Positions 1 to 17,393 of a stretch of 64,000 nt of DNA are shown here, piece by piece. The notes beneath the pieces were generated by a model, which saw only the letters and a program-made list of their open reading frames with translations, was not told the DNA's origin and searched no databases. Position numbers and translations under genes: made by a program. Origin of the DNA: a virus (lineage: Duplodnaviria > Caudoviricetes); the IMG/VR virus record IMGVR_UViG_3300049988_000245, positions 128,001 to 192,000 of that record; one strand, 5' to 3'. Every line of letters starts with the position of its first letter. Position 1 is the stretch's first letter.

Positions 1-344
1 GCCTTTACGCGATTCGCCATCGCAGCCTTGTTGCCAAGGTTGGGATCGGTCTTCATCTTATCAGCGAGCTTGGCCGCCTGACCCATCATCTGCGAGGAGA
101 TGGGCTTGGAGGGCGTCTGCGTACCGGTCTGGCCGGGCTTGGCCGTGCTCGTGATGCCGGGGGCTCCGTTGGTGGAGTTCGGCTGTGTTTGACCGCCAGC
201 AGGCGTCGGAGGAACCGGAGCGACCGTATCCTCGTCAACCTCTTTGCGATCGAAGAGACGGCCAACGATGCTGGCCGAACCCTTCTTCTTCGGGGCGGAA
301 TCGCCCGCACACGCCTTGTCTGCGTGGCGGGACGTTATTTTCCC
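1..344 (-). CDS. Open frame running off the left edge; probable -1 frameshift extension of the 335-1252 protein (partial)
   Basis: No stop from 344 to 1 in this frame; codon usage looks coding (AAG/GCC/ACC/GGT); no ATG/GTG/TTG for about 80 codons; entered by slippage at GGGAAAA (344-338). Confidence 0.6.
304..344 (-). promoter_or_regulatory. Putative -1 programmed ribosomal frameshift signal (G_GGA_AAA, 6-nt spacer, GC-rich hairpin)
   Basis: Minus strand: CCG GGA AAA TAA CGT CCCGC-CACGC-AGACAAG-GCGTG-T-GCGGG. Confidence 0.65.
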
Positions 345-1252
345 GGCGCAGACTCCCGAACGATCTCGACAACATCGGAGAAGTCGATGCCAAAGTGGCG
401 AGCGATGGTCTTCGCGGCCGGGACCGGCTTGGCACCCTCGCGGATCGCACGACGGAACATCTTCAGGATACGAGCGTCGGACTCGGAGACTTCGTCCTTC
501 TTGGCGAACGGATTCTCGTCCTTGTCGCAATCCTTGTCCTCATCCTCACAATCGTCCTTCTTCTCGGACTTGTCGGCATCCTTGGGAGCGAACGGGTTCA
601 CACCCTTCTTGCCCTTGACGAACTCGCCTTCCTTGATGGCCTTGCCACGCGGAGCGGCGGATTCCTTCTTAGCGCGGCCAGCGGCGGTTGACGCGTCGGC
701 GCCGAAGGCGTCGTCCAGACCAGCGTCCGCATCAACCACACCCGCCTCAGGCGCCACAGGGGCGCCCATCTCGGGAGCGATGGCCGGAGACGCCGCGTCC
801 ATGCCGCCCATGTCGGGAGCCGGAGCCGCAGCAGCCGGGTCACCCATGGCGGACATATCGTTGCCGGGGGTCTCGCCGTTCATGATGCCTTCGAACTTGC
901 CGACCTCGGAAGAGATCGCGTCCTTGGCCTGGGAGACCGCCATAACGGTGGCGTTGATCTTCTCGGAAACGATCGACTGGAACTGCTCGGCCATCTGCGG
1001 ACCGAAGGCCGCCTTCAGGGGCTCCATGATCGGCATGATCTCATCGCCGTTCACCTTGGCAAGGTCTTCGGCAATCTTCTGGAGCTTGTCCACGATGGAC
1101 TTCGCGGCGAGGACAACCTCAGCCTTCTCAAGCTCGGACTCGATGAGGAAGGCTAGACCAGTCTTCGACTGAGCTTCCTTCAGGTTCTTAAGCTGCGCCT
1201 GAAGAGCATTCTTTCGACGCATCATCTCAGCCAGTTTGGTCTTCTTGCTCAT
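335..1252 (-). CDS. Acidic helical/low-complexity protein, putative prohead scaffold or core-like protein
   Basis: 305 aa; coiled-coil N-half, Ala/Pro/Asp linker, several I/L-x-E motifs of the type cut by T4 gp21-family proteases; function inferred. Confidence 0.5.
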   Translation of the reverse strand: MSKKTKLAEMMRRKNALQAQLKNLKEAQSKTGLAFLIESELEKAEVVLAAKSIVDKLQKIAEDLAKVNGDEIMPIMEPLKAAFGPQMAEQFQSIVSEKINATVMAVSQAKDAISSEVGKFEGIMNGETPGNDMSAMGDPAAAAPAPDMGGMDAASPAIAPEMGAPVAPEAGVVDADAGLDDAFGADASTAAGRAKKESAAPRGKAIKEGEFVKGKKGVNPFAPKDADKSEKKDDCEDEDKDCDKDENPFAKKDEVSESDARILKMFRRAIREGAKPVPAAKTIARHFGIDFSDVVEIVRESAPGK

Positions 1253-1266
1253 AATAACTCCTTGAA

Positions 1267-1533
1267 TTATTTGCGTTTACGGATGCGCTTTGGCGCGATT
1301 TCTTTAAGCAGCAGGTGGACTGCTTCACTGATCAGGACTGCTTTGGCGTAGTCGGGGTTGCGCATCGAATCGGCTTCCCCCAAAGTGGCCAAGAACACTT
1401 TTCGCTTAGACTCGTAGAGATTCCGAACATCTACCAGATGTTCAAACGTACCGAACTCCACTCGAACGCCGAATCGACTTTCAAGCAGAGTATTAATCGG
1501 TTCGATTTTCTTGAGGATGGCCCTCTCGTTCAT
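1267..1533 (-). CDS. Hypothetical protein
   Basis: 88-aa ORF with upstream TAAATA (1563-1568), collinear with neighbours. Confidence 0.6.
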   Translation of the reverse strand: MNERAILKKIEPINTLLESRFGVRVEFGTFEHLVDVRNLYESKRKVFLATLGEADSMRNPDYAKAVLISEAVHLLLKEIAPKRIRKRK

Positions 1534-1596
1534 AAGCTTCCCCGGATCATGCGATACAATGGTATTTATTAAACCGCGAGAAGCCTGGGGACGGGC

Positions 1597-1962
1597 TCAA
1601 ATATTGTACTTATCTTGGTCAGGATCGGTCATCTTAAGGAGTAGGCAGAAATTCGCCCACTCGTTCATCAGGGTTGGATTCTGAAGAATCGTCTCCTGCA
1701 TAGTTTTGTAGAAATTTGCGTACGGCTCGATGTCCATGATTCGATCTTGCAGACCACGAATGATCTGGTTGTTATCCTGGGTGATCGTCTGCACAATCCC
1801 TTCTAGAGAGACGATGTGATTGCAGAGCCGGTTGATTTTCTCTGCGTCGGAAAGCTCAACCTGCGCGATTTGCTCGTCTAACGAGCGTAGATCGCGCATC
1901 TGAATCTTTCCATCGGGGAGTCTCTTGAAGTAGTAACTCCCCTGCATTGGGTTGTCGGGCAT
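1597..1962 (-). CDS. Hypothetical coiled-coil protein
   Basis: 121-aa ORF coupled to the upstream gene at 1962. Confidence 0.6.
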   Translation of the reverse strand: MPDNPMQGSYYFKRLPDGKIQMRDLRSLDEQIAQVELSDAEKINRLCNHIVSLEGIVQTITQDNNQIIRGLQDRIMDIEPYANFYKTMQETILQNPTLMNEWANFCLLLKMTDPDQDKYNI

Positions 1963-2594
1963 CAGCGGCGGATACCCGCGAGACGCAGGATTTCTTCGTG
2001 TGCAGATGTCGCCTCGCCCTGGGCACGGTCGAAACGATCCTCGGCCACGAGAGCCCGGCGGGTCTCGCCCTTGGCGTGCAGATTCTGCGAGCGGGCCTTG
2101 TAGGAGACCGCATCGTTGCGAGCACGGGCGAAGTTTTCTTCCAGCACCATCAGGTCGCGGATCGGCTTGTCATTGATCGCCACGCCCTCGTTGAGACGAC
2201 GGACCAGACCGAGTGCCGCCTCGTACAGGTACAGCCCACGGGCGATGACAACCTCACCATCCTCAGAGCACACATCGTAGGTCTTCACCTGACCTTCGTT
2301 GACGACGATCTCCCACGCACCAATGCGGGCACCGCGCGGGGTTGGCTCCGTGATCAGGGCCTCTTCCACCTCAGCGTCACGCGGCTGGACCGACTCGTTT
2401 ACCACCGGGGCGGCGCCGTTCATGGCCAAGAGAATCTTCTTCATCGCCTCGATGCCAGGATCACCCATCAGGGCCGGGGACGGCTGCTGACCAGATTCCA
2501 TCAGATCATCGGCCTCCGCCGCCGCTATGGACTTCCCGTTCAGGGCGTTCATGATTTTCGCCATATCGTCGATGGCTTTACGATCAACACTCAT
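1962..2594 (-). CDS. Hypothetical protein
   Basis: Start moved to MSVDRK (ATG 2594, GGAGG upstream); coding-like codon usage. Confidence 0.65.
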   Translation of the reverse strand: MSVDRKAIDDMAKIMNALNGKSIAAAEADDLMESGQQPSPALMGDPGIEAMKKILLAMNGAAPVVNESVQPRDAEVEEALITEPTPRGARIGAWEIVVNEGQVKTYDVCSEDGEVVIARGLYLYEAALGLVRRLNEGVAINDKPIRDLMVLEENFARARNDAVSYKARSQNLHAKGETRRALVAEDRFDRAQGEATSAHEEILRLAGIRR

Positions 2595-2595
2595 T

Positions 2596-2823
2596 TCAAA
2601 ACCTCCAAAGATCGGCACAATCGTTTACAGTATAGAATTCACCCTCATCGTCTTGGTCGCGGTTGAGGAGTCCACGGGAAACCATCTGACGCGCAACTTC
2701 ACCGTCGCGCTCCTCCAGTTCCTCAAAACGAATACGCTTCGATTCGGTGGCCCGGTTAATCAAGGTCTGTTCTTCCTCGTTCACCGGGAGCCGCATTCCG
2801 CTGGAAATTTCATAAAAACGCAT
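2596..2823 (-). CDS. Hypothetical protein
   Basis: 75-aa ORF; AAGG SD and TAAATA (2847-2852) upstream. Confidence 0.6.
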   Translation of the reverse strand: MRFYEISSGMRLPVNEEEQTLINRATESKRIRFEELEERDGEVARQMVSRGLLNRDQDDEGEFYTVNDCADLWRF

Positions 2824-2845
2824 CGTAGTACCTTAGCTGAAATGA

Positions 2846-3316
2846 TTATTTAGAATCAGCCGCTTCTAAGGTGTCGATGTGAGCCATCATGAATTCGTAG
2901 AGGACAGCATTAAGCTCAACGTCCCGCTCACAGTAGGGAACCATCTCAGGATGAAAATTGTCGAAACCCTTATCGTACTTGATTTTCGGAAATTCGAAAA
3001 TTTCACCCCAGGTTTCTAGCCGATGATTAGGCATTTGCTTGAAGAGCTTACGGCTCAGTTCCACGGTATCGATGATCTTGGATTCGTCCAACTTGATCAA
3101 TCCATCGGTAAGATTCTCGATGACTTTTGCGTCGTACGATTTGAAGTTGTGTCCAATAATAATATCAGCTTCCGCTAGACGCATAAGCCCTTCTGGAACT
3201 TCGTCGTCCCCAACGTATGATTTGTACTCGCCGGTCTCCATATCTTTGATTCCAACAACGTAAATCTTGGTCGGTTTAAGTCCATTTGTCTCAAGATCGC
3301 CGACGAGTATACTCAT
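2846..3316 (-). CDS. Stand-alone DnaQ/PolA-type 3'-5' exonuclease
   Basis: ExoI DLETNGL, ExoII GHNFKSYD, ExoIII YCERD; start moved to MSILV. Confidence 0.8.
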   Translation of the reverse strand: MSILVGDLETNGLKPTKIYVVGIKDMETGEYKSYVGDDEVPEGLMRLAEADIIIGHNFKSYDAKVIENLTDGLIKLDESKIIDTVELSRKLFKQMPNHRLETWGEIFEFPKIKYDKGFDNFHPEMVPYCERDVELNAVLYEFMMAHIDTLEAADSK

Positions 3317-3386
3317 TTTAAACCTAAAAAAATATGATTCTATAATGGAACTCTGCCAAATAGAATAAGTCAAAGCTATATAAAAA

Positions 3387-3953
3387 TTATGGTAGACCAG
3401 CGGGTCTTAAGCTGCCTGCACGAAAATCAAAACGAACTTCGATTCTAGTCACATTATTGCGAGCGTTGTACTGAAACGCCGAAAAAACCCAGATCGTGGA
3501 TGACACCGGGGTGGGACTGACAATTCTCTGCCGGGTAGGGGATTTTTCACCCGCAATAACCAATGTATTTCTTCTGCTGTCATAGTAGAAGAGCGAGATT
3601 TCACCATTAGTTGCTGCGCTAGGCGGCCTAAAAAACTCACCATCCGCGAATACGGTATACAAAGATACAGGCGTGTCAAATACAAGGTAGTAAAGAGGGG
3701 CGACCGTGTTTTGGTCGATAGGGTAACTTGGACGTTGAATATTCAGATAGTAAAGAGAATCATCTACTTTCTGAATCTGGTATGGAATGTTTATATAGAA
3801 ATCAAAACCTTTGCCCGCAAATTCGGGATAGTTTAAGTCTGCCTCTCTCGGCTTTTCAGGAGCGTATCTTCCAAACCTTAGAGAAAAAAGTTCTTTTTTT
3901 ACGGCTTTGAATTTCACACAACCGTCAACGTTAACCAGACCTCCGATATCCAT
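3387..3953 (-). CDS. Hypothetical beta-rich protein (AT-rich gene)
   Basis: 188-aa ORF with upstream TAAATA (3978-3983). Confidence 0.55.
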   Translation of the reverse strand: MDIGGLVNVDGCVKFKAVKKELFSLRFGRYAPEKPREADLNYPEFAGKGFDFYINIPYQIQKVDDSLYYLNIQRPSYPIDQNTVAPLYYLVFDTPVSLYTVFADGEFFRPPSAATNGEISLFYYDSRRNTLVIAGEKSPTRQRIVSPTPVSSTIWVFSAFQYNARNNVTRIEVRFDFRAGSLRPAGLP

Positions 3954-4028
3954 AATTTATTCCCCATAATAAAAAAGTATTTATTTCTAGTTGCAATTCA
4001 TCTCCATGCCCATCTTGAACTGTCGCCC

Positions 4029-4056
4029 TTGCATTTCTCTCGATTGAGTGTATCTT
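4029..4056 (+). promoter_or_regulatory. Sigma70-type early promoter
   Basis: TTGCAT-N16-TATCTT ahead of the rightward operon. Confidence 0.55.
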
Positions 4057-4083
4057 ACGAGAATCAACTCATGGAGAACACCG

Positions 4084-4323
4084 ATGGCCAAGACGCTCAA
4101 GAGCTTCCTCGTTCAGCACAACGACCCGAACGCTGAGGCGATCGCCAAGCGTCTCCGCGTGTTCGCAAAGGAAGCCAAGGTTGCGTTTGCCGCCCAGGTG
4201 GTGACGGTGAATCAAGCGGAGAACCGCACTGGTCATCTGATCAGCCTGAATGCGTCCACCATGACCAGCGGGCGCAAGCTCAAGGACTTTGCGCGTAAGA
4301 TCGATTGGAAGTACCACTACTGA
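4084..4323 (+). CDS. Hypothetical protein
   Basis: GGAGA SD; start moved to MAKTLK. Confidence 0.6.
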   Translation: MAKTLKSFLVQHNDPNAEAIAKRLRVFAKEAKVAFAAQVVTVNQAENRTGHLISLNASTMTSGRKLKDFARKIDWKYHY

Positions 4324-4517
4324 TGGATCATCCGCTTTCCCATGTGAAGCTCTACTATGGGCTCAAGCTGGTTGATCAGTTTATGCGAGATGGAAATCCG
4401 TCTAAGGCGGTTGCTACGCTGACGATCATCCGGGATATGTACGGATTCGACCATGCCCAGGCGATCATCGCGTTCTGGGCTTTTCAGGAACCGATTTTGA
4501 AGAGGCCATTGCAGTGA
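4323..4517 (+). CDS. Hypothetical protein
   Basis: TGATG coupling at 4321-4325. Confidence 0.5.
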   Translation: MDHPLSHVKLYYGLKLVDQFMRDGNPSKAVATLTIIRDMYGFDHAQAIIAFWAFQEPILKRPLQ

Positions 4518-4984
4518 GAAATACACCCGAGAACAAGCGCACGATCGACGCGATCCTGTACCGGATACTCGCCGACCAAGTCCTCGAAGTGATGGAGTCG
4601 AACGACTTCGGCAAGGACCGCGATCTCTGCCTGGAGATTCTGAACCTTCACTCCGGACAGGAGTGGAAGAAGATGCAGAACTTCAAGGGCACGATCGTGC
4701 TGGAGACGTGGGGACCGAACGCGCCCGGAAACCCCGTGGGTGAGATTCCCAATTTCACCGCGTCCATGAAGGAAACTCTTGGGCTGTTCCGTAGCGGTAT
4801 CACGTCGCATTTGCGTCCGGTGATGCGGCAGTACCCGGACGAGCAGTGGTGCGTAACGTTCGACTTCGGCACGCCTATGCTGAACGCCCCCAGGGTGTAC
4901 GGGGAAGACCCGATCTCAACCCTGTTGATCTGCGGGCTTCTGTCGGCCGCATTCCTGCTCGATCCGAACAAGGCGGCGCTGTGA
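4514..4984 (+). CDS. Hypothetical protein
   Basis: 156 aa, GTGA overlap with the previous gene. Confidence 0.55.
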   Translation: MRNTPENKRTIDAILYRILADQVLEVMESNDFGKDRDLCLEILNLHSGQEWKKMQNFKGTIVLETWGPNAPGNPVGEIPNFTASMKETLGLFRSGITSHLRPVMRQYPDEQWCVTFDFGTPMLNAPRVYGEDPISTLLICGLLSAAFLLDPNKAAL

Positions 4985-5229
4985 GCGATTACGATGATCT
5001 GGAACGCCAATACCCGTTCCCGCACGTCGTCGAGATTCGCGACTTCTCTAACAAGCGTGAGGCCAAGCTCTGGTGCATCCAGCGCTTTGGAAAGAACATC
5101 CGCCTGCGTGATACGAATGACGTGATGTGGATGTCCACCACCACGATGTGGCAGAGCGCCTTGGGGGCGAGTACATACCGGTTTCGCAATCCCGATCACG
5201 CGTTCGAGTTCAAGATGAGGTGGGGATGA
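4981..5229 (+). CDS. FKxRW-family small protein (member 1)
   Basis: GTG start overlapping the previous stop; KLWCIQRFG ... YRFRNPDHAFEFKMRWG. Confidence 0.7.
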   Translation: MSDYDDLERQYPFPHVVEIRDFSNKREAKLWCIQRFGKNIRLRDTNDVMWMSTTTMWQSALGASTYRFRNPDHAFEFKMRWG

Positions 5230-5498
5230 CTCGCATCCATATCATTCAATTCCCACCAACGCATTCGTACTTCGGCAGGATGTATATTGTCGATCAGATA
5301 CTGCCTCACGTGACGCTTGAAACCAACCCTCACTCGTTGGTCGAATTTCTCGTGGACAGCCAGGATTTCAACACATGGTGCTATGACCGGCGAATTCCGA
5401 TCCATGGGAAGAAGTATGCTCATCTTCCAAATGAGTGTGAATATGTCGATCTGAGCGATGATCAGCGATTCGAATTCAAAATGCGTTGGGGTTACTGA
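5226..5498 (+). CDS. FKxRW-family small protein (member 2)
   Basis: ATGA overlap; TWCYDR ... DLSDDQRFEFKMRWGY. Confidence 0.7.
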   Translation: MTRIHIIQFPPTHSYFGRMYIVDQILPHVTLETNPHSLVEFLVDSQDFNTWCYDRRIPIHGKKYAHLPNECEYVDLSDDQRFEFKMRWGY

Positions 5499-5782
5499 TG
5501 CATCCCATTTTGTTAGCTGCGGTCCAGTTTTTTCGGTTCGACGATGGCGTAACGCCCGCGATTGTAGTGTTCGTGGGTGATCTCGCGGCGCGATGTCACA
5601 TGGAAGATGAATTCTTGAAACACTTGCCACCCCGGCATGACGCAGTGGAATTCTTTGATTGGTGTGATGAACGCGGACTGAAACCCATGCTGGAGCAAGA
5701 TGAGCCGGATGAAAACCTCTGGACGGTCAAAATTCCTGACCCGACGATTCGGTTCGAATTCCGTATGCGCTGGGGCAACTGA
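5498..5782 (+). CDS. FKxRW-family small protein (member 3)
   Basis: TGATG overlap; DWCDERG ... IPDPTIRFEFRMRWGN. Confidence 0.7.
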   Translation: MHPILLAAVQFFRFDDGVTPAIVVFVGDLAARCHMEDEFLKHLPPRHDAVEFFDWCDERGLKPMLEQDEPDENLWTVKIPDPTIRFEFRMRWGN

Positions 5783-6114
5783 TGGCAACGTTCTTCGACA
5801 TCGACGACCCGATCATCCGGAGGCTCAATTTCAAGCAAATTGGGGACGATTTCGCTGGTCTGTACCGGGTCGCACCGAGGTGGGACCCCCTGGTGGAGCA
5901 TACGATTAACCCTCAGGAGGATTATGCGCCTGACTTTCAGGAAATGATCGACTTTGTCCAGTCGGATGCTTTGCTCGGACAGATGTATGTGGAATACTAC
6001 GACCCGTTCAAGATGGCTGCTTCCAATGGTGGACGAATCGTCCGCTACCACAGCATCAATTTCTATTTTACCGACTCGGCTACGGCGTTCGCATTTAAGA
6101 TGAGGTTCGGCTGA
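5782..6114 (+). CDS. FKxRW-family small protein (member 4)
   Basis: TGATG overlap; ends FYFTDSATAFAFKMRFG. Confidence 0.7.
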   Translation: MATFFDIDDPIIRRLNFKQIGDDFAGLYRVAPRWDPLVEHTINPQEDYAPDFQEMIDFVQSDALLGQMYVEYYDPFKMAASNGGRIVRYHSINFYFTDSATAFAFKMRFG

Positions 6115-6338
6115 TGGCCAAGCAGGCGGTATATTCGAGTTCCGAGTGGAAACAACCGGCGCGTATGCCCCATGGGGTAAGGATAAAAGTGGATTCTCAT
6201 CCCTGGTCTGAGATCAAAGGGTGGCTTAGAGACCGCAGTCATATTGGGGTGTTCCGGTTCGACGAAGGTGCGTTTCACAACGTATTCTGGTTTTCGAACG
6301 AGAACACGGCGTTCGAGTTCAAGGTACGATTTGGATGA
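6114..6338 (+). CDS. FKxRW-family small protein (member 5)
   Basis: TGATG overlap; KGWLRDR ... WFSNENTAFEFKVRFG. Confidence 0.7.
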   Translation: MAKQAVYSSSEWKQPARMPHGVRIKVDSHPWSEIKGWLRDRSHIGVFRFDEGAFHNVFWFSNENTAFEFKVRFG

Positions 6339-6955
6339 AAATTTTCTTCAAACCGGAAGATCGCTCGTACTTGTATTATGCGAACGCCCGTGGTCGCGAC
6401 ATCTGCGCGAAGCTAAACTTCATGGGGCGGCTGGTCCTGCGTGCGGAGGGATGGCGGGTCGAGCCGAACAGCATCTTCCATCCTGATGGTTCTTATCGAT
6501 TTTTCGAGAACGGTTTTCTTGGAAATGGTGCCGGAGAGGGCGTACCGTTCATCGACGATCTGCGGATGGCCAAGCGTCAGGCGAGGGAGATGTTCCGAAG
6601 GATCGAGCGGCGGACCTACCGGAACGCTTTCCGCATGTGCCGGTCAGATATCTTCCGTGAGCGGATGTCTGGCCTTACAAGTGAGAAGAAGGTCCGCCGC
6701 TGGAGTCAGAACGGAGAACTTCGACACGCTCCGAAGGCGCTGCGGTATCCGATGTTCATTGGGGATGACTTCGATTCCCTCCCCGAGGGGATGGAGGAGT
6801 GGCTGAACACGCGCGACTGCACTCTTCCTACGTTGGAAGGGACCTGCTTCACCACCAAGCGGATGACCCGCTCGATTACCCACCGGGTGCATGACGTGAT
6901 GATCGACTTTCCCGATCGAGAGACGGCGTTCGAGTTCAAAATGAGGTGGCTTTGA
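6335..6955 (+). CDS. FKxRW-family protein with long N-terminal extension (member 6)
   Basis: ATGA overlap; EEWLNTR ... DFPDRETAFEFKMRWL. Confidence 0.7.
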   Translation: MKIFFKPEDRSYLYYANARGRDICAKLNFMGRLVLRAEGWRVEPNSIFHPDGSYRFFENGFLGNGAGEGVPFIDDLRMAKRQAREMFRRIERRTYRNAFRMCRSDIFRERMSGLTSEKKVRRWSQNGELRHAPKALRYPMFIGDDFDSLPEGMEEWLNTRDCTLPTLEGTCFTTKRMTRSITHRVHDVMIDFPDRETAFEFKMRWL

Positions 6956-7041
6956 TGTTGCGCAAGCTGTTCGGACGCAATGACGGCATGGGGATTACCA
7001 TCTGTCTGAAGGCGATTGATGCGATCAGGATTTCCGTATGA
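6955..7041 (+). CDS. 28-aa bridging mini-ORF (MLRKLFGRNDGMGITICLKAIDAIRISV)
   Basis: Starts in the TGATG of member 6 and stops in the ATGA of member 7. Confidence 0.45.
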   Translation: MLRKLFGRNDGMGITICLKAIDAIRISV

Positions 7042-7406
7042 AAATATCTGCGCTTGCTGTAATCGCTTGTGTCGTAACCGGTTCTCTCGTGCTCGGAGTG
7101 TACTGGCTTGCCTTGGCATACCAAAATCGAGTCAACAAAATAAAATATCTGGAGTATACTAGGGAATTAAGAAACGCGATAAAGAATCCACATTATAGGA
7201 TTGTATGGGACTTTAGAAATAAAACATCAATTAATCAATGTATAAATTGGAACGTTAACGAACAAAAAATTGACCTTAGCCAAGAAGTTATCAGTTGGCT
7301 TGATGAAAACTGTCCAGAAGTACGGGTTATGCAGGACGATTACGATCTCCTAATAATTTTTACGAACGAAGAGGACAAATTCCATTTTAAGATGAGATGG
7401 ATGTGA
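7038..7406 (+). CDS. FKxRW-family protein with N-terminal membrane anchor (member 7, AT-rich gene)
   Basis: Hydrophobic N-terminus; SWLDENCP ... IFTNEEDKFHFKMRWM. Confidence 0.7.
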   Translation: MKISALAVIACVVTGSLVLGVYWLALAYQNRVNKIKYLEYTRELRNAIKNPHYRIVWDFRNKTSINQCINWNVNEQKIDLSQEVISWLDENCPEVRVMQDDYDLLIIFTNEEDKFHFKMRWM

Positions 7407-7762
7407 TGGACCTGCAATTCTGGATCGGATTCTGGATAATATGGGGGAGTTGGATTCCGGCGATCTTTGCAATCCTCTCCGACTTGGATGGGGATCGGGT
7501 ACGACGTGAGCGCAAGGCGATTCTGCGCGGGCCATCCTTGTGCATCGAAGGAAAGCCCTTGATACAGGAGTTTCCGGAGATTCAGAAGCTGGAGCGCTCT
7601 GCCAGACCCGTCAGATCGGGTGGGGCGCTGTACGCCGAGGTGTGCGAATGGTGCGATAAATTCCTCAAGAGCCCTCCCCGGTACTATCGGGACAATCGGC
7701 GCCCCTACGCGGTGTTCCGTTATCCGGACGACGCGTTCCAGTTCAAGCTGCGGTGGCTATGA
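7406..7762 (+). CDS. FKxRW-family protein with N-terminal membrane anchor (member 8)
   Basis: FWIGFWIIWGSWIPAIFAIL; EWCDKF ... FRYPDDAFQFKLRWL. Confidence 0.7.
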   Translation: MDLQFWIGFWIIWGSWIPAIFAILSDLDGDRVRRERKAILRGPSLCIEGKPLIQEFPEIQKLERSARPVRSGGALYAEVCEWCDKFLKSPPRYYRDNRRPYAVFRYPDDAFQFKLRWL

Positions 7763-8154
7763 TGCTAGTGGGGATTCTGACAGGAGTGATCCTCTCGGTT
7801 GGATTTATCGGCGGGGCTATCGGTCTGAAGAAGTATCGCGCAAGGATGCAGGAGTTCGATCGAAGAATCCGGGAGTATGATCTCCTCCTGCTCCGAGCGA
7901 AGCCGAATTTCATCTTTTCCCTGGGCAATATTTCAGACACGCGCGGTACCCATATATCTTCGCCAGCTTCCCAATACGAATGGATTCGCTATGACCTGCG
8001 GCATGGTCTGTTCGAGGTTCATCCTGACGTGATCAAGTGGTGCGACGAACTTGCACCCGGATATGTGGTGGAGAATGACGAGCAATCTGGTGAGATGATC
8101 CTCGCCTTTGCCAACGAGAACGACAGGTTTCATTTTAAGATGAGGTGGTTGTGA
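7759..8154 (+). CDS. FKxRW-family protein with N-terminal membrane anchor (member 9)
   Basis: LVGILTGVILSVGFIGGAIGL; KWCDELAP ... FANENDRFHFKMRWL. Confidence 0.7.
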   Translation: MMLVGILTGVILSVGFIGGAIGLKKYRARMQEFDRRIREYDLLLLRAKPNFIFSLGNISDTRGTHISSPASQYEWIRYDLRHGLFEVHPDVIKWCDELAPGYVVENDEQSGEMILAFANENDRFHFKMRWL

Positions 8155-8348
8155 TGCCAATATTCTTCGTACCCCCGCAGCATCGCACATGCCCGGATTG
8201 TGATGTCCTTGTTCCGATAGCTATTTCGGTTGCAGTCGTAGTTTTTACGATAGTCTTTCTCTGTGCCGCTGTATTCCTGATCGGATTCGTAGAAAGGCGA
8301 ATTTGTAAGAAGCCAATCAGTAATCGGATCATAGAGAAACCAAAATGA
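8154..8348 (+). CDS. Small membrane protein with CxxC
   Basis: TGATG overlap; CPDC followed by a long hydrophobic stretch. Confidence 0.5.
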   Translation: MPIFFVPPQHRTCPDCDVLVPIAISVAVVVFTIVFLCAAVFLIGFVERRICKKPISNRIIEKPK

Positions 8349-8349
8349 T

Positions 8350-9042
8350 ACTGAGAGGCCGAGCTACGCTCAGCCTGCTGTGTGCTTGCTTGTTCACTGA
8401 CGTTCACTTCGCTTCACCACAGCGAAATATCTTAAAGATCATTCATCCTTGATCTCGAAAGATCATCGCTTTATTCTCCCCCTCCACTTGAGACATAATG
8501 GTTTCAAGAAACAATTATCACTCAAGTGGAAGAGAAGATGGTTCGGTTGTCTCGATGAGTCAATCGTTCAACAAGCCACGTAGCTGATTCTACTCAGCGC
8601 AGGCGGTTACCCGGTACCTGCTTTGCAGCCCAATCTCGGCATGATTCCTTCTGAAACTGATGTAGGGAGGGTCCACGCATGTGCTCATCGAGCCCTTTCA
8701 TGCCTGGGTCTTGCCATCCAGCGAATCTGTTTTATCTGCCTAACGGTCGTTGCTTTTGCAACACTCACACCACCAGACTGTTGAAGCATCGGTGGTGCGC
8801 AGGAACGGGCCAAAGGTCGTCGAAGGCACACGTTTCCTGTCATTTTAGGTGCGTTTTGCGAAAATCCCTTGGGATTCGCCGAGCCGCCGTTTTCGTCGCC
8901 CGAGGGGCGCATCGATCCGTCTCGTGGGCCGTCTTTGCCGAGGGTCCGGTCTACAGGTCGATGACCCTCAGTTCCCGGATGCCAGTTTGTGGGCGGAGCA
9001 ACCCGATGACGCAGGCTCCTAGACGTATGCTTGGTTCAAGAT
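8350..9042 (-). ncRNA. Candidate large structured non-coding RNA (class unknown)
   Basis: No convincing ORF; TAAATA promoter at 9053-9048; many helices (8474-8536, 8599-8621, 8749-8762, 8858-8879, 8940-8969). Confidence 0.55.
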
Positions 9043-9073
9043 GGTTATATTTATCGTTCATCGTTTTCAATAT

Positions 9074-9090
9074 ATTTCGTTGAACCAAAA
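9074..9090. promoter_or_regulatory. Palindromic operator-like site
   Basis: ATTTCGT-TGA-ACCAAAA between the ncRNA promoter and the HAD gene. Confidence 0.5.
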
Positions 9091-9114
9091 ATGAATTTCT
9101 GCTATTGCCCCATC

Positions 9115-9609
9115 ATGTGTGATCTCCTTTCGCTCCCCAAGCTCGACCATCCTCTGCTCGATCCTCACGCGATCATCGCCTGGGATATGGACGGGACGCT
9201 CATCGACGGTCCGAACGCGAAGTTTTTTCGCGCGTACATTCTCGCTCATCCCGAGAAGCAACATCACATTGTCACGTTCCGGACCGGACCGGCTCTGCGA
9301 ATCACTGAGGTGGAGATGTGGAAGGACGAGTGCGTGTACGAGTTGTTCCACCTCGGCGTCCCCCATGGGACGATCAAGCAGACTCACTCGATGCCCGACC
9401 ACCTCTATCACGCCTGGGCGCAGCGGAAGAGCTTCATCCAAGAGACCGAGGTCGCCGCGTTCCTTGACTGGAAGGGGAAGACCGCCGCAGAGATAGGCGC
9501 CACCGTGATGATCGATGATATGCCCGGAATGGTGAAGAAGGGCTGCGCCAAGTACGGAGTGACGTTCATCGACGCCCATAGTAAACAGTTCGGCTACGAG
9601 GGCGAATGA
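9115..9609 (+). CDS. HAD-superfamily hydrolase/phosphatase
   Basis: Motif I WDMDGTL and motif IV MIDD; start could be 9091 or 9115. Confidence 0.75.
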   Translation: MCDLLSLPKLDHPLLDPHAIIAWDMDGTLIDGPNAKFFRAYILAHPEKQHHIVTFRTGPALRITEVEMWKDECVYELFHLGVPHGTIKQTHSMPDHLYHAWAQRKSFIQETEVAAFLDWKGKTAAEIGATVMIDDMPGMVKKGCAKYGVTFIDAHSKQFGYEGE

Positions 9610-9836
9610 TGTGGTCGCAGGACGAGGACGAAACTGAGGTTTGGCGCCGGACCGATGGGGCTACGGTGAAACGTATGTCAGGCGCGACGCTGAATCCATA
9701 TTCGGTCCATGACCGGACCGGATGCGCGATGCAAAACTTCTATCCCGGACGCAAACCGGTTCGTAGGATGTTCAAGTCGCCTGAGTTCGCCATGCTCGCG
9801 GCGGACAAGCACTGGCCACTGAAGGTGGACGCATGA
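9606..9836 (+). CDS. Hypothetical protein
   Basis: ATGA overlaps at both ends. Confidence 0.55.
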   Translation: MMWSQDEDETEVWRRTDGATVKRMSGATLNPYSVHDRTGCAMQNFYPGRKPVRRMFKSPEFAMLAADKHWPLKVDA

Positions 9837-10351
9837 GGTTGCTCCGGTACGTCGTCGAGCATCACCGGGCCAAGGGTCTCTGCCCGTATCAGATCGGCTT
9901 CAGGTCGTGGATCACCGACGAGGAGCGGGACGAGATGATTGCCTGGGCTCAGGCGAACTTGTCGGCGAACGCTGATTGGCACCCGCGCGCACATACGTGG
10001 CACTTCCCCACAGAGGAAGAGCTAAACGCGTTCATCGCGCATCGTCGGATGGACACCTGGGAAACGCGGATTCCACAGTGCATATGGGATGATGCCCCGT
10101 TCGAAGTGGCTGGATGGGTGACGGTGGACTCCCGAAAGCACCAGCGCCTCGATTTCGAAGAGAATTCTATCGACTGGTTCTGGTGCCGGGTGGACAAATG
10201 GGTCGTCGAGAATTGTCAGAAGCAGGTCATCAATTCGTCGCTCTCTCCGGGTCAGAATCGGGGGCGCGGTGCGCTTCTATCCAACTATGAGTCGCATTTT
10301 GGATTCGAGAGCGCCGAGGAAGCCACGTTGTTTCGAATTCGCTGGAACTAG
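9833..10351 (+). CDS. FKxRW-family protein, probably a tandem double domain (member 10)
   Basis: IAWAQAN ... HFPTEEELNAF, then KWVVENC ... FGFESAEEATLFRIRWN. Confidence 0.65.
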   Translation: MRLLRYVVEHHRAKGLCPYQIGFRSWITDEERDEMIAWAQANLSANADWHPRAHTWHFPTEEELNAFIAHRRMDTWETRIPQCIWDDAPFEVAGWVTVDSRKHQRLDFEENSIDWFWCRVDKWVVENCQKQVINSSLSPGQNRGRGALLSNYESHFGFESAEEATLFRIRWN

Positions 10352-10677
10352 CGCCTCTTTAGGGTGACCCGGTAGGCGCCGCCACCATTGAGGATTTCGA
10401 TCGAGCGAACCCCGTTGGCCCGCTCCATCCAGTGGGGAAACTCCCGGCAGATTGCCCCGGACTTTCCCGTGACGACGACGAAGCTCGCCACCCCGGCCTT
10501 GCGCTTCTCTTCGACCATCCCGAGTGTTCGGGTGTGAGCGGACGCGATCGTGTCCCCGTGGAGGTCGATCGATTCTAGGGGTAAGTATGGCTCCAGCCGT
10601 GGGTCACGGCGAATCTCGCCCTGGCCCAGCGGGGTTATAGAGCGTTTCACATATTCCCAGAGTGAATCTTTCTTCAT
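10348..10677 (-). CDS. Small Smr (MutS2 C-terminal-like) domain protein
   Basis: IDLHG ... VVTGKSG ... GGGAYRV Smr signature. Confidence 0.8.
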   Translation of the reverse strand: MKKDSLWEYVKRSITPLGQGEIRRDPRLEPYLPLESIDLHGDTIASAHTRTLGMVEEKRKAGVASFVVVTGKSGAICREFPHWMERANGVRSIEILNGGGAYRVTLKRR

Positions 10678-10902
10678 GGCTCGATTCGGCTAAAAAATTA
10701 ATCCACTTTACCGAATCTGCTTGCGCGGTCGCAATATCAAATTAGGTTTCTCACCGTACGGCTATGGCGTGAGAGCACGCATGCAGCAATGCATTCATTC
10801 GGCCGTGCAGATTCGAGACCCAAGCTAACCCTGAACGTCTCGTTTCGACCCTCGGTGCCGGTCTTTGTCTGGGTGCCCTTGGATGGGACCGGCACCGTTG
10901 GC

Positions 10903-11148
10903 TCAATACCAACGCAGCTTGAACTCCATCGCCGCGTCTGGATCGGTAAACGCGAATCCCGTCTTCTTCGATCCATACCAGCGACGCGCGAAATCCGTCT
11001 CGAATCGCGATCCGGGCGGGTCCATCGGCCCGAAGCGATCGACCACCCACCCTAGGATGGAAATATATTCGGCGAAGGCTTCCTCTTCGGCCCAAATGAA
11101 CCCGTAGGGATACCCGTGGAGGTTCTGGTGCTCTTTGAATCTTACCAT
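10903..11148 (-). CDS. FKxRW-family small protein (member 11)
   Basis: TAATG overlap; GWVVDRFG ... FAFTDPDAAMEFKLRWY. Confidence 0.7.
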   Translation of the reverse strand: MVRFKEHQNLHGYPYGFIWAEEEAFAEYISILGWVVDRFGPMDPPGSRFETDFARRWYGSKKTGFAFTDPDAAMEFKLRWY

Positions 11149-11426
11149 TAGCACCACCGCATCTTGAAACCGAAAGCATCCTCTGAGTTGGCGAAGTAGA
11201 TGTTATAGGCTAAAGGCCGATAGCGGGTGAAATCCATGCCGTCGTACTGGTTTCTACACCACCACAGGATTTCATCCAGAAAATCTTCCGGATTTCCTAA
11301 GCCTTTATCGGTGAACGCCGTCGTCTTGAGGCGAAACCGGTATGGATAGGCAGTGCCTTCGGCTGTAGCCTCCTCCCACACGCGTATCCCTTCCCACTCC
11401 GGCTTCATCTGACTGATCCGTCGCAT
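11148..11426 (-). CDS. FKxRW-family small protein (member 12)
   Basis: TGATG overlap; WWCRNQ ... YFANSEDAFGFKMRWC. Confidence 0.7.
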   Translation of the reverse strand: MRRISQMKPEWEGIRVWEEATAEGTAYPYRFRLKTTAFTDKGLGNPEDFLDEILWWCRNQYDGMDFTRYRPLAYNIYFANSEDAFGFKMRWC

Positions 11427-11662
11427 CAGGTCCACCGCAGTCGAAATTCCATGATGTCGTCCGGTTGTGTGAGGACGATCGCATAGGGGTAGTAGGCCCA
11501 GCGCTTCGGTACGTCGGTAACCTGCTGGATTTCTTCCGCCTCACCGAATCGCGATATGCACCAGATCACCACGGCGTTGTAACGGACCATATCGGCGGCC
11601 TTGCCGACGAAGTGAACGGTGCCTTCGACTGAATGGTCTATGTGAAATCGAAGATCGTCCAT
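11426..11662 (-). CDS. FKxRW-family small protein (member 13)
   Basis: TGATG overlap; IWCISRFG ... LTQPDDIMEFRLRWT. Confidence 0.7.
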   Translation of the reverse strand: MDDLRFHIDHSVEGTVHFVGKAADMVRYNAVVIWCISRFGEAEEIQQVTDVPKRWAYYPYAIVLTQPDDIMEFRLRWT

Positions 11663-11934
11663 CACCCCTGAGCCCATTTGGCTTGGCCATTTTCGTACAT
11701 GGTAAACCTCTTGCCCCGTAGGAGATCGGTCGTCAGAGCGAACCGACCGTTGACGAGCCGTTCCGTGCCTCCCGAGCAGGCGTAGAGAAGCCCGTCGTTG
11801 GGATTGCGCAGATAGGTGGGGCCGCCGCAGACCATGTCGCGCGCATCCATAGAATGAAATAGCTCCGTCTCTTCGTCCTCGTGCCAGCCCTTGGCCTTGA
11901 GCGCATCGACCTGAGCGAAACGACCATACTCCAT
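11662..11934 (-). CDS. Hypothetical protein heading the leftward array
   Basis: AGGAG SD; start moved to MEYGRF. Confidence 0.55.
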   Translation of the reverse strand: MEYGRFAQVDALKAKGWHEDEETELFHSMDARDMVCGGPTYLRNPNDGLLYACSGGTERLVNGRFALTTDLLRGKRFTMYENGQAKWAQG

Positions 11935-11949
11935 CGGGGATGCTCCTAA

Positions 11950-11966
11950 AATTGGTTCGACGAAAA
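11950..11966. promoter_or_regulatory. Palindromic operator-like site
   Basis: AATTGGT-TCG-ACGAAAA in a divergent intergenic region. Confidence 0.5.
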
Positions 11967-12087
11967 TTATTGCGCGCATGGTTAATGCCCGCTATGGTCC
12001 CTTCATCGAACAGGGGATGTGCCTGACCCTAGTCGAGTGATTAAAATTTTTCCAGGCATTCTTGATTTTTCCAAGGTTACTATTTTC

Positions 12088-12447
12088 ATGTCCGACTCCG
12101 TTGCTGCAACCGAAGCCCGTCGTCCGCGCGCCCCCAAGGGTGGTCGCGTCAAGGAGCGCGCCCGCCGCGTCATCGACACCGCCAGCCTCGCCGACTACCT
12201 CGCCGGTCTCGATCTCGGTGTGAACCCGTCCATCCATGTGAACGGCCACGCCTTCCAGATGGCCCTTGTCACGGTCGATTTCGGCCAGCCCCTCAAGTCG
12301 ATCAAGCTCACCCAGGAGCAGAACGCCGAGTTCACCGATCGCCTTCGCAAGCTCGGTCGCGAAGTCCTCGGCCGTGGCGAGAACGCCGCCGTGCGCGTCT
12401 CCCACGACCTCACCGCTGGTCTGGTTTACTACGTCAGCGCGGTCTAA
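12088..12447 (+). CDS. Hypothetical protein with strongly biased codon usage
   Basis: Start moved to MSDSV; followed by a terminator-like hairpin and T tract. Confidence 0.65.
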   Translation: MSDSVAATEARRPRAPKGGRVKERARRVIDTASLADYLAGLDLGVNPSIHVNGHAFQMALVTVDFGQPLKSIKLTQEQNAEFTDRLRKLGREVLGRGENAAVRVSHDLTAGLVYYVSAV

Positions 12448-12552
12448 CTCGAATCCCCGTGCTCCGAGGGGTTATTCGGGCGGACTCCTCTTTTGTTCCC
12501 ACTTGGGTAACCAACTTGGGCGTCACCTTCGCGGGTGTCGCCCTTTTTCGTG

Positions 12553-13284
12553 TCAGTCGTCGTCCTGGGGAATCGACCGGGGAGGTACCGGGACCCCATA
12601 GTAGGGATCGACCTCCTGCCGATCATACGGGGACGGCTCCCGGCGGGTCTCCGCTCGCACGTATGGGGGCGGAACCCGGCGCGGCTCTTCCAGGCTGAAC
12701 GTCGGGGGCTCTCGGCGCGGCTCCGCTTGAACGGTCCGTCTGGGAACCTCGCCGACCGGCTTAGGCTCGTACAGGGACAGAATTTCGTCCGGACGCTTCA
12801 ACGGCATCGCGCGGACCGTCTCGACCACCCTGGGGTAGCCTAGAGACTCCGCCACGCCTGATCGGCTCGCCACAGACGCCCGACCCATCTCGATCCCGTG
12901 GCAAGCGGTAAAATAGATGGCCGTGAAGTTCGCTGACTTGCGAATCGTCTCCGGTGGATCGGGATTGAACGGCGCGATCATCAGGGCGACCACCTTGCCC
13001 GGACGCTCTGCGATCAGCGTGGGATGGCGCTTCGAGCAGTACACGTAGGATTTTTCCTTCGCCGCTGCCTGCCGTCCTGCGTGGCTGGCCTTGTACATAT
13101 CGATGGAAACCTGTCGAAGCGTCCCATCGGGAATCTCCCGGACCACGCTGTTCTGGGTGATCTGGAACTCGTCGCACCCGTCCTTGTGGCACAGCGCGCG
13201 TACCAGATCGGGGCGCGGTCCTCCCGGCTCCGCATAGGCGTATGAAACTAGCAACACGGATGCTATGGCAGCGACGGCGCGCAT
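12553..13284 (-). CDS. Secreted/periplasmic protein with Cys-containing domain and Pro/Arg-rich tail
   Basis: Signal-peptide-like MRAVAAIASVLLVSYAYA; CHKDGC, YCS, ACHG. Confidence 0.65.
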   Translation of the reverse strand: MRAVAAIASVLLVSYAYAEPGGPRPDLVRALCHKDGCDEFQITQNSVVREIPDGTLRQVSIDMYKASHAGRQAAAKEKSYVYCSKRHPTLIAERPGKVVALMIAPFNPDPPETIRKSANFTAIYFTACHGIEMGRASVASRSGVAESLGYPRVVETVRAMPLKRPDEILSLYEPKPVGEVPRRTVQAEPRREPPTFSLEEPRRVPPPYVRAETRREPSPYDRQEVDPYYGVPVPPRSIPQDDD

Positions 13285-13365
13285 AAAGTTCCCCCTTGGA
13301 ATGACACCCATCCATAGGCAAAAACTTTGCCGAGATCGAGGCGAATCCCGGACACAACGCGACAA

Positions 13366-13371
13366 TAAATA
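13366..13371 (+). promoter_or_regulatory. T4-like late promoter core, 5 nt before ATG
   Basis: TAAATA-CCGTC-ATG(13377). Confidence 0.6.
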
Positions 13372-13376
13372 CCGTC

Positions 13377-14057
13377 ATGCGTTACCAAGAATTTGCCCGA
13401 CCCATTGTGAATGAGATCGAAACGAACGCCCAGATGGGCGATGACGCGTTTATTGATCATCTCCATAAAGATGACTTCAGCGGTCGTCAGTTGGACCTGT
13501 TCAGGGAAATCCCGTCGCTGGAGCCAGACATTCCACCGAACTATAAGTTCGTGGGTCGGCTCGGTGAATTCTTCGTCGCCAAACGGAACAAAGAACGCGG
13601 GAATCCCTACACCAGCTACGTATTCTTCAATCGAGATTCAGCACTCGGATATGTCTCGCTCGCCGCGTATGACCGGTCGGCCTCGCAGTATCCCGCCCAT
13701 GCCCCGGAGGCGCCCGAACTGTCCGGCATCGGACTTCGCATCCATGGGGTGCAAGTACAGCCGAAGTTCCGAGGTCAGGGCCTGGGTTTGAAAATGTACA
13801 AGTGGCTGTTGGAGAACGTCTGCGACTACTTGATGGCCGATGACGTACAGACTCCCGATGGCGTCGCGCTGTGGAAACGCCTCCAGGCGCAATCGAACAT
13901 CTTCACCGTCGAGGTCTGGGACGGTGAGAAGTTCGAATCTCGCTTCCGAAAGCGTGGGCGGGATTTTAATTACGTGTACGACAAATGCCACCTCATCCCA
14001 TGGGTAACGATCCCGTCGAAATACGAAATGGTTATCGAACATCCTGACAACAACTAA
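13377..14057 (+). CDS. GNAT-like acetyltransferase with capsid-targeting-like N-terminus
   Basis: IHGVQVQPKFRGQGLGLKMY acetyl-CoA motif A; QTPDGVALWKRL; N-terminus MRYQEF...VNE. Confidence 0.7.
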   Translation: MRYQEFARPIVNEIETNAQMGDDAFIDHLHKDDFSGRQLDLFREIPSLEPDIPPNYKFVGRLGEFFVAKRNKERGNPYTSYVFFNRDSALGYVSLAAYDRSASQYPAHAPEAPELSGIGLRIHGVQVQPKFRGQGLGLKMYKWLLENVCDYLMADDVQTPDGVALWKRLQAQSNIFTVEVWDGEKFESRFRKRGRDFNYVYDKCHLIPWVTIPSKYEMVIEHPDNN

Positions 14058-14095
14058 GCTGGATTCCCTCGTAGGATTCGTGTACCCCGCAGGGC

Positions 14096-14335
14096 ATGCG
14101 ACACCTCCCTATAATCGGCTCCGTTCTCGTTGGCCTCTCGATCGTCCCCGCGCTCTACCTGGGCCTGCTTTACAGCCGTGGGCAGACCTTTCCGGGGATG
14201 CCTCGCTGGATGGTCCCGGTGAGTCCCACGGGGGTCGTGAGGCTCCCTGATCCGGTCGAATTGGTTGAGCCCATTCAGGTGGCCGTACTGGCGCCCCCGA
14301 AGTCTATTCAGGCACGTGCGGGTAAGCTAAAGTAG
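14096..14335 (+). CDS. Small membrane protein
   Basis: Hydrophobic N-terminal helix. Confidence 0.5.
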   Translation: MRHLPIIGSVLVGLSIVPALYLGLLYSRGQTFPGMPRWMVPVSPTGVVRLPDPVELVEPIQVAVLAPPKSIQARAGKLK

Positions 14336-14359
14336 CCGCTGATCTCTCATGGATATCTC

Positions 14360-14638
14360 ATGGCCGTCGAATCGTGGACGCTGATCTTCTCCCTCCTGTT
14401 CCTCCAGCAGGAGAGCGGTACCCCAGCGAAAATCGAGCACATGCCACCGATCCTGGGAATCGAGTCGGAGAAACTGTGCACGGCGGCCAAGGACGCGATG
14501 ATCGACGCGTATGAGGGCGAGGCGACCGAGCCGATGGCCGACTACGAGCCTCCGAAGGATCAGCCGGACAAGGCTCAGCCGTTGGATGAGCAGTTCCACT
14601 TGATGCGCCCGATCGGGGTCTGCATCAAAGTGAGGTGA
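14360..14638 (+). CDS. Small secreted-type protein with two Cys
   Basis: WTLIFSLLF N-terminus; EKLC ... GVCIKVR. Confidence 0.5.
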   Translation: MAVESWTLIFSLLFLQQESGTPAKIEHMPPILGIESEKLCTAAKDAMIDAYEGEATEPMADYEPPKDQPDKAQPLDEQFHLMRPIGVCIKVR

Positions 14639-15029
14639 TACGCTCCTCGTAATGGAGCTTGCGGTGGCAGTTTGCGCAGAGAACAATGCATTTGGCGATC
14701 TCCCGCATGACACGTTTTCGCGCGGCTCGTGCGATCAGCGTGGCGACTCCGCCATCTTCCTTGTCGCCATTGGGATGGTGAAAATCGAGACAACCGGGGT
14801 GATTTTCTGGACAGCGCTCACATACAAGCGTTGACTTGTATTCGTGAAACCAAATCTTAGTTGTCTTCCTCTGAATAACTCTTTTCTTGAGATAAAAATC
14901 CTTATTTTCGAGGTAATGTTCTCGACGATAGGATTTTTGACAAACTTTACACTTTGATTGATGTCCGTTCCCACGCTTATTAAAGCAGGAAAACTCTTTC
15001 TGTTCTTTACAGTCACTGCATGTTCTCAT
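14625..15029 (-). CDS. HNH endonuclease (homing-type), AT-rich
   Basis: CSDC..CKVC zinc finger, CERC..LDFHH..KCIVLCANCHR; TAAATA 4 nt before ATG. Confidence 0.8.
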   Translation of the reverse strand: MRTCSDCKEQKEFSCFNKRGNGHQSKCKVCQKSYRREHYLENKDFYLKKRVIQRKTTKIWFHEYKSTLVCERCPENHPGCLDFHHPNGDKEDGGVATLIARAARKRVMREIAKCIVLCANCHRKLHYEERITSL

Positions 15030-15061
15030 CCATTATTTATGTTGAGAACAGAACAGATATT

Positions 15062-15139
15062 TGGCGCGTCGTAACGGAGTCGAACCGATATTGCCCTGAG
15101 TGAAGGTCAGGTTTCCTAAGCCAATTAGAAGAACGACGC
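15062..15139 (-). tRNA. tRNA-Glu(UUC) with non-canonical C33
   Basis: Cloverleaf: acceptor GCGTCGT/ACGACGC, G73, encoded CCA; anticodon arm CCTGA-CCTTCAC-TCAGG; one T-stem mismatch. Confidence 0.85.
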
Positions 15140-15169
15140 ATTTCACCCGTCACGGTGAAAACTGGTAAA

Positions 15170-15245
15170 TGGCGCCCCCAGCCGAAGTCGAATCGGCGTC
15201 CCTGCACTGAGAATGCAGTATCCTGGGCCACTAGACGATGGGGGC
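15170..15245 (-). tRNA. tRNA-Glu(CUC)
   Basis: Acceptor GCCCCCA/TGGGGGC, anticodon arm CTGCA-TTCTCAG-TGCAG, TTCGA loop, CCA. Confidence 0.9.
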
Positions 15246-15247
15246 AT

Positions 15248-15322
15248 TGGCGCACACGACGAGGATCGAACTCGCGACAACCGCATCGACAGTGCGGTAC
15301 TCTACCACTGAGCTACGTGTGC
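15248..15322 (-). tRNA. tRNA-Asp(GUC)
   Basis: Acceptor GCACACG/CGTGTGC, anticodon arm CCGCA-CTGTCGA-TGCGG, CCA. Confidence 0.9.
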
Positions 15323-15364
15323 ATCTCGATCCCGTGGGATCAAGAAACTGGTAACCGGTAAGGC

Positions 15365-15400
15365 CAAAGAAAAAGGCCCAACCGGGGTGCGGTGGGCCTT
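15365..15400 (-). terminator. Rho-independent terminator
   Basis: AAGGCCCA...TGGGCCTT hairpin followed by TTTTCTTT on the minus strand. Confidence 0.65.
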
Positions 15401-17391: not shown

Positions 17392-17393
17392 GG

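Follow-up and report, generated by a model that had tools for sequence, protein, structure and literature searches.

The conserved end of a family of small phage genes very probably doubles as the next gene's Shine-Dalgarno (SD) sequence, with selection for downstream translation setting the codon of one conserved arginine within it. The stretch of DNA analysed here (the window) is 64,000 nucleotides long and corresponds to positions 128,001–192,000 of a 265,895-bp IMG/VR virus contig; coordinates below are those of the window unless stated otherwise. At the focal junction, whose sequence (5200–5229) is as quoted in an earlier reading of the DNA without database searches (the sequence-only reading), member 1 of a chain of nine such genes ends M-R-W-G-stop, written ATG AGG TGG GGA TGA, and its arginine codon lies within a GAGGTG motif shortly ahead of the start codon of member 2, which overlaps the member 1 stop (Table 1).

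The contig has 56% G+C and a CheckV completeness of about 57%, and crude in-house calls of genes and starts gave 371 genes covering 86% of it. Genes in the window include those for T4-type topoisomerase II subunits, RNA ligase 1, ClpX and glutathionylspermidine synthase. The topoisomerase is nearest (46–51% identity) to its counterparts in Sinorhizobium phage Phosso and Agrobacterium phage Atu_ph07, jumbo phages of ~470–490 kb that infect Sinorhizobium and Agrobacterium respectively and are the nearest isolated relatives. Window positions 1–20000 searched by megablast and one family member searched by tblastn had no match in the phage collection. The runs in which the window stretch occurs come from leaf and silage metagenomes, with no RNA run among them, and runs X3–X9 contain partial relatives. 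Elsewhere on the contig, ARAGORN predicts a pair of adjoining tRNAs with CUA anticodons (outside the window, G000:C1:59598–59752; amber-reading, labelled 'Pyl'); TAG ends 45 of the 371 called genes, and wholesale TAG recoding is not evident.

A motif scan over all stop-to-stop frames of the window yielded 26 ORFs with the conserved end and arginine. These small genes share the ending A-F-x-F-K-[M/L]-R-[W/F]-x-stop, and the arginine is encoded by AGG in seven, AGA in five, CGT in five, CGC in four, CGG in four and CGA in one, so that the AGG and AGA counts given in the sequence-only reading are reproduced. The mostly overlapping junctions it described are also seen: 18 of the 26 are TGATG, TAATG or ATGA overlaps, two have a start 1–2 nt past the stop, and six have no close downstream start. 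Over the whole contig a regular expression recovered 75 credible members, and a profile built from the 26 window members gave 85 matches, most of which span profile positions 2–46, from a W-C-x-E-x-x-G helix to the protein end. The signature is 'W-C-x-E...D-A-F-x-F-K-M-R-W' in a profile of ~45 positions ending at the C-terminus. AlphaFold models the focal protein (82 residues) as a single beta-alpha-beta4-alpha domain (pLDDT 86), and homology covers the whole ~45-residue profile and the folded domain of ~70 residues. In all likelihood the family is one small phage alpha/beta domain, uncharacterised and present as ~85 diverged paralogues. Selection also appears to act on the conserved position at the protein level, as had been proposed, with arginine in 72 and lysine in three of the 75 members.

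Table 1. Family members and associated features in the window, with the codon of the conserved arginine and the junction with the next gene.
Feature	Coordinates	Strand	Arg codon	Junction or remark
Focal junction	5200–5229	+	AGG	End of member 1: nine sense codons plus stop, A-F-E-F-K-M-R-W-G-stop
GAGGTG motif	5217–5222	+		In focal junction
Arg codon of member 1	5218–5220	+	AGG	In focal junction
Stop of member 1	5227–5229	+		TGA
Start of member 2	5226–5228	+		ATG; ATGA overlap with member 1 stop
Nine-gene family chain	4981–8154	+		Junctions all TGATG or ATGA overlaps; profile matches
Chain member 1	4981–5229	+	AGG	
Chain member 2	5226–5498	+	CGT	
Chain member 3	5498–5782	+	CGC	
Chain member 4	5782–6114	+	AGG	
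Chain member 5	6114–6338	+	CGA	
Chain member 6	6335–6955	+	AGG	
28-codon mini-ORF	6955–7041	+		Bridges members 6 and 7: TGATG at member 6 stop, ATGA at member 7 start
Chain member 7	7038–7406	+	AGA	
Chain member 8	7406–7762	+	CGG	Alternative start 7397
Chain member 9	7762–8154	+	AGG	Alternative start 7753
Short hydrophobic ORF	8154–8348	+		64 codons from ATG 8154, 67 from GTG 8145; TGATG-coupled to member 9
172-aa member	9833–10351	+	CGC	Stop TAG; no coupled downstream gene (convergent neighbour)
Three chained members	10903–11677	-		
First	11426–11677	-	CGG	TGATG
Second	11148–11435	-	CGG	TAATG
Third	10903–11157	-	CGT	Last of its chain, no coupled gene
Two members	17137–17651	-		
First	17394–17651	-	CGC	Next ATG 2 nt past stop
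Second	17137–17391	-	AGA	TAATG; coupled to a gene of ~316 codons
Two members	19251–19801	+		
First	~19251–19514	+	CGT	TGATG
Second	19514–19801	+	CGC	No coupled gene
Two members	35571–36154	-		
First	35849–36154	-	AGA	TAATG
Second	35571–35849	-	CGG	Stop TAA; no coupled gene
Five-member chain, all AGR	41804–43092	+		First four junctions TGATG or TAATG
First	~41804–42037	+	AGG	
Second	42037–42267	+	AGG	
Third	42267–42518	+	AGA	
Fourth	42518–42802	+	AGG	
Fifth	42802–43092	+	AGA	Stop TAG
Two members	47996–48719	+		
First	47996–48457	+	CGT	Next ATG 1 nt past stop
Second	~48459–48719	+	CGT	No coupled gene

Across the contig AGR (AGG or AGA) encodes the conserved arginine in 29 of 72 members (40%). 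By comparison, AGR makes up 8.0% of the 4547 arginine codons outside the family, 6.3% of those in long genes, and 12.4% of the remaining arginine codons of the family genes themselves; the CGN-dominated background assumed in the sequence-only reading is thus seen genome-wide. Binomial p-values are 6e-14 against the 8% background and 2e-9 against 12.4%, in both cases treating as samples paralogues that are not fully independent. AGG accounts for 20 of the 29, and AGA occurs in 9 of the 72 members against a background of 3.7%. Within the motif the phenylalanine, lysine, leucine and cysteine codons follow genome usage and those for alanine and glutamate show smaller shifts from it, with the arginine codon standing out as a strong outlier. 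Where the last codon encodes glycine, GGA is used in 42% of cases compared with 16.5% in the genome, and GGA-TGA itself builds the ATG of an ATGA overlap. As a separate observation, TGA ends 54 of 75 family genes and 200 of all 371 called genes, which fits selection for TGATG and ATGA overlaps.

The position of the AGG codon agrees with that of SD sequences elsewhere in this genome. An AGG arginine codon places GAGG 5–8 nt ahead of the next start, and the family GAGG begins at -12 in TGATG junctions or -9 in ATGA junctions, inside the -14 to -8 interval in which GGAG and GAGG peak before gene starts. Predicted energies for the duplex with the anti-SD are -6.9 kcal/mol for AGG members, -4.0 for CGN members and -3.4 for AGA members, computed with a generic ACCUCCUUA tail from which the 16S 3' tail of the host may differ. 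A core motif (GGAG, GAGG or AGGA) is found in 83% of coupled AGG members but in only 4% of coupled CGN members, and CGN is retained in roughly half of the coupled members. The earlier statement that each cassette carries its own SD is overstated, as it fits most coupled AGG members but hardly any of this CGN half, which suggests that an SD at this position is helpful and not required. Non-family genes behave similarly, with an SD motif in the last 17 nt of 34% if a gene is coupled behind them versus 7% if not. AGA forms no SD core, and its excess may reflect its position as a one-step neighbour of AGG, or the in-frame ATG that it makes at -10 when TGG follows.

Splitting the members by downstream coupling, as the sequence-only reading had envisaged, places nearly all AGR codons in the coupled class. 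We scored a member as coupled if an ATG or GTG at -8 to +20 of its stop opens an ORF of at least 50 codons, a rule that leaves out position -10, where AGG-TGG, CGG-TGG and AGA-TGG create start codons. By this measure 55 of the 72 contig members have a start at -8 to +20, and AGR is found in 27 of these 55 versus 2 of the 17 uncoupled members (p = 0.005–0.01 under four definitions); with a window of -14 to +20 the counts are 28/57 and 1/15. The fifth member of the all-AGR chain (42802–43092) has no obvious close start in the window scan and is counted as coupled because the rule picks up an ORF of 50 or more codons that opens with GTG. Member 6 of the nine-gene chain carries AGG despite having no long ORF behind it, which can be explained by the 28-codon bridging ORF that follows; that mini-ORF could serve as a relay or be what is left of a gene that has decayed. 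Terminal uncoupled members of arrays use CGN in 7 of 8 cases, and among singletons AGR is present in 6 of 12 coupled members versus 1 of 10 uncoupled. When our contig and the external set described below are pooled, the proportion of AGR is 17/24 at -4 overlaps, 23/49 at -1 overlaps, 1/9 where the start lies at 0 to +4, and 2/32 where there is no start. Coupled non-family genes show a weak, non-significant excess of AGR in their last five codons (16/61, versus 13/76 in uncoupled genes). We also note a G+C-rich hairpin, intrinsic-terminator-like in appearance, at 35545–35571 on the minus strand, directly past the TAA of the CGG member 35571–35849.

The same contrast is present in other phages. 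A degenerate DNA pattern for A-F-[E/A/D]-F-K-M-R-W, neutral between AGR and CGN, identified 13 loci on six IMG/VR contigs that have no megablast similarity to our genome, and a profile search of these external loci gave 52 non-redundant members. In this external set AGR is found in 18 of 38 coupled and none of 14 uncoupled members (p = 9e-4), compared with 12.6% AGR in long ORFs. Among the 16 profile matches in phage Phosso the regular expression recovered six copies with a clear R or K (AGG in two, CGN in three, and one mis-assigned arginine), too few to use.

Orthologues provide a second comparison. A 6.4-kb Logan contig, L002, is 83–89% identical in nucleotide sequence to window positions 8038–14626. 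In the window, the last member of the nine-gene chain uses AGG and is followed through TGATG by the coupled hydrophobic ORF of 64–67 codons, which lies in an extra 205 bp; the L002 orthologue ends K-M-R-W-F with the arginine as CGC and a TAG stop, and continues directly with sequence matching the window from 8356. The 205-bp segment (8151–8355) is absent from L002, and a contig of run X6 is also without ~8081–8356. A second orthologue pair is reversed, the window having CGG and L002 having AGG, with both members coupled. Because the pairs differ in both directions (AGG/CGC and CGG/AGG), the codon is not frozen but changes at this level of divergence. The proposal that the conserved arginine acts as an SD for the next gene, which the sequence-only reading had put forward, is well supported in that the codon bias is overlap-dependent, coincides with the SD spacing of the genome, and recurs in other phages as well as in one orthologue pair; it is from this combination of codon statistics, replication and orthologue contrast that we infer that the motif would raise downstream translation.

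The mechanism we favour would operate as follows. The genes are packed head to tail with the next start overlapping the stop (TGATG, TAATG or ATGA), and this overlap places the invariant arginine 5–8 nt before the next start, where an SD must sit. Among the residues of the C-terminal helix, only the arginine can be encoded by a synonymous codon that writes an SD core: (M/L)-R written as NTG-AGG gives GAGG, and a following tryptophan extends it to GAGGTG. Selection for downstream translation would then have shifted the arginine codon away from CGN towards AGG at any junction with a coupled gene, acting either through SD-assisted reinitiation after termination or through direct initiation, and the last codon would be shaped likewise, glycine as GGA supplying the ATG of the ATGA overlap. 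A more far-reaching proposition has the C-terminal helix recruited as a general-purpose translational coupler, joining ~90 fast-evolving accessory genes into long strings translated by relay and so constituting a platform for gene capture and gene birth. We consider this unlikely; if true, any small ORF arriving directly behind a family gene would be expressed at once, the hydrophobic ORF at 8154–8348 and the mini-ORF at 6955–7041 being examples.

Alternatively, AGR might act without 16S pairing, either as a rare codon that slows the ribosome before termination or by making an ATG or GTG at -10. This could accommodate the enrichment of AGA, which occurs though AGA has no SD core. Of the contig's five AGA-TGG members, four do gain an ATG at -10 that shares the reading frame of the downstream ORF. 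A phage-supplied tRNA-Arg for AGR was sought, and no tRNA-Arg gene turned up on this contig, a result also in favour of this reading. However, the SD-forming AGG carries most of the excess, it is used equally before phenylalanine (AGG-TTC), where no start codon is made, and CGG-TGG also makes a GTG at -10 yet CGG remains at background frequency. In view of this, and of the coincidence of the position with the SD peak of the genome, we regard action independent of 16S pairing as quite improbable.

The link between codon and coupling could also be a by-product of ancestry, if tandem duplicates inherited both an ancestral AGG or AGA and a chained layout. There is some clustering of this kind: AGR is found in all five members of the 41804–43092 chain, in three consecutive members near genome position 14,000, and in 10 of the 14 members of the R-F-G tail subtype, and the 27-nt ends of neighbouring members are slightly more alike than average (65% versus 61%). 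Against this, synonymous sites elsewhere in these 27 nt look like random draws from genome usage; moreover, the terminal uncoupled members of AGR-rich arrays are CGN, orthologues at 83–89% nucleotide identity already differ in both directions, and the AGR contrast recurs in unrelated phage contigs and across many tail subtypes. Common descent is thus a very improbable source of the association.

The sequence-only reading had further suggested that the shared end of ~30 nt provides microhomology for gain, loss or shuffling of cassettes, like an integron without an integrase, with the built-in SD, stop and start ensuring translation of any incoming sequence. Some observations would fit. The 205-bp indel begins exactly at the stop codon of member 9 and its ORF is coupled to that member, gene bodies can diverge far faster than their flanks and ends, and metagenome contigs match nothing but the motif (at 5189–5229 and 6081–6118) and then differ from the window. 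If the ends were recombination sites, DNA conservation beyond that of the protein might be expected, but the 27-nt ends (D-A-F-x-F-K-M-R-W) are 61.1% identical and their longest exact runs average 6.2 nt; when the codons are redrawn from genome usage for unchanged amino acids, the values are 62.0 +/- 0.5% and 6.4 nt. There is therefore no sign of homogenisation, the DNA being conserved no more than the protein requires, and the microhomology proposal is not supported. The homology across profile positions 2–46 and the single folded domain point to paralogues that have diverged, as opposed to unrelated cassettes sharing a tag, and so argue against an integron-like arrangement.

Contigs of four runs compared with window positions 4000–20000 are short Logan contigs only, several of which match solely at the motif and then diverge, as is expected from paralogues or from other phages in the metagenome; there is also one odd join, of 7749 to 10909 with 15 letters between. 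In these fragmentary contigs we saw one clean strain indel (8151–8355), with one end at a member stop and the other nowhere near the motif. The fast-diverging 172-aa member is 43% identical in protein to its counterpart at L002:4306–4830, whereas the flanks are ~85–90% identical in DNA, but the pair is collinear and homologous, which indicates fast divergence and not replacement; the contrast suggests that the variable part of this member evolves very fast, possibly in a diversifying manner. We give the shuffling of cassettes at gene ends very little credence. Programmed frameshifting at the rare AGG to fuse neighbouring genes was also considered and set aside, there being no evident slippery site and the overlaps being standard start-stop overlaps.

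Integron cassettes (attC, IntI, Pc) do resemble these arrays in being serial, short, co-oriented and variable genes, but they are typically unrelated to one another, whereas the phage genes are mutually homologous over the whole domain, have ends conserved as protein only, and have no conserved DNA recombination site. Phage morons are single extra ORFs inserted between genes, and the 205-bp segment is like them in containing one small ORF, in being present in one strain only, and in its insertion exactly at a gene boundary; it differs in that its ORF is predicted to be translationally coupled to the preceding family gene.

The closest known parallel to the favoured explanation, in which the protein end serves as the SD of the next gene, is the intragenic SD of overlapping gene pairs, which modulates termination-reinitiation and is not essential (Huber et al. 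2019, PMC6728339; see also PMC2784483 and PMC12548453 on such SD sequences and translational coupling). The two have in common the same stop-start overlaps, an SD in the upstream 3' coding region, a 5–8 nt spacing, a constraint on upstream synonymous codon choice, and an SD that is helpful although many pairs lack it. The phage case is a conspicuous instance of this known arrangement, made visible through one conserved residue in dozens of paralogues, and is not a new mechanism. It differs from the published pairs in that the SD falls on one invariant helix residue in ~85 paralogues of a single phage, that it is known from sequence alone, and that the effect can be read as a within-family polymorphism, AGG if coupled and CGN if not. 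As such it is an unusually clean natural demonstration that downstream initiation signals shape upstream synonymous codon choice, spanning dozens of paralogues, several unrelated phages and one orthologue pair. In practical terms, codon 'optimisation' of polycistronic constructs should leave rare AGG and AGA close to the ends of genes in place, and the AGG/CGN pattern aids start calling in dense arrays.

The expansion of the family also has a parallel, in the ~35 zinc-ribbon proteins of Bacillus phage G, which are a lineage-specific expansion (Iyer et al. 2021, PMC7824862). In both, a jumbo phage devotes a sizeable share of its genome to many diverged copies of one small domain, but the family described here has a beta-alpha-beta4-alpha domain, a higher copy number and chained overlapping junctions, and its domain gave no Pfam or PHROG hit above threshold and no significant match among solved structures. 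Pfam and PHROG scans of 10 window members, and a Pfam scan of 10 metagenome members, gave nothing above threshold. Neither Foldseek (best E = 1.1) nor VIA-align in a wide search (best Z = 5.0, a generic two-layer alpha/beta arrangement) found an informative fold in the PDB, matches in BFVD and the ESM Atlas are to uncharacterised viral proteins only, and a search of IMG/VR for loci related to member 6335–6952 found none. A profile search of 1.84 billion proteins returned 794 cluster representatives at E <= 0.001, nearly all matching at the C-terminus, and some of these are only 46–57 residues long. One metagenome protein, P0001 (143 aa), contains two tandem family domains, each ending F-K-L-R-W, so that neighbouring members can fuse.
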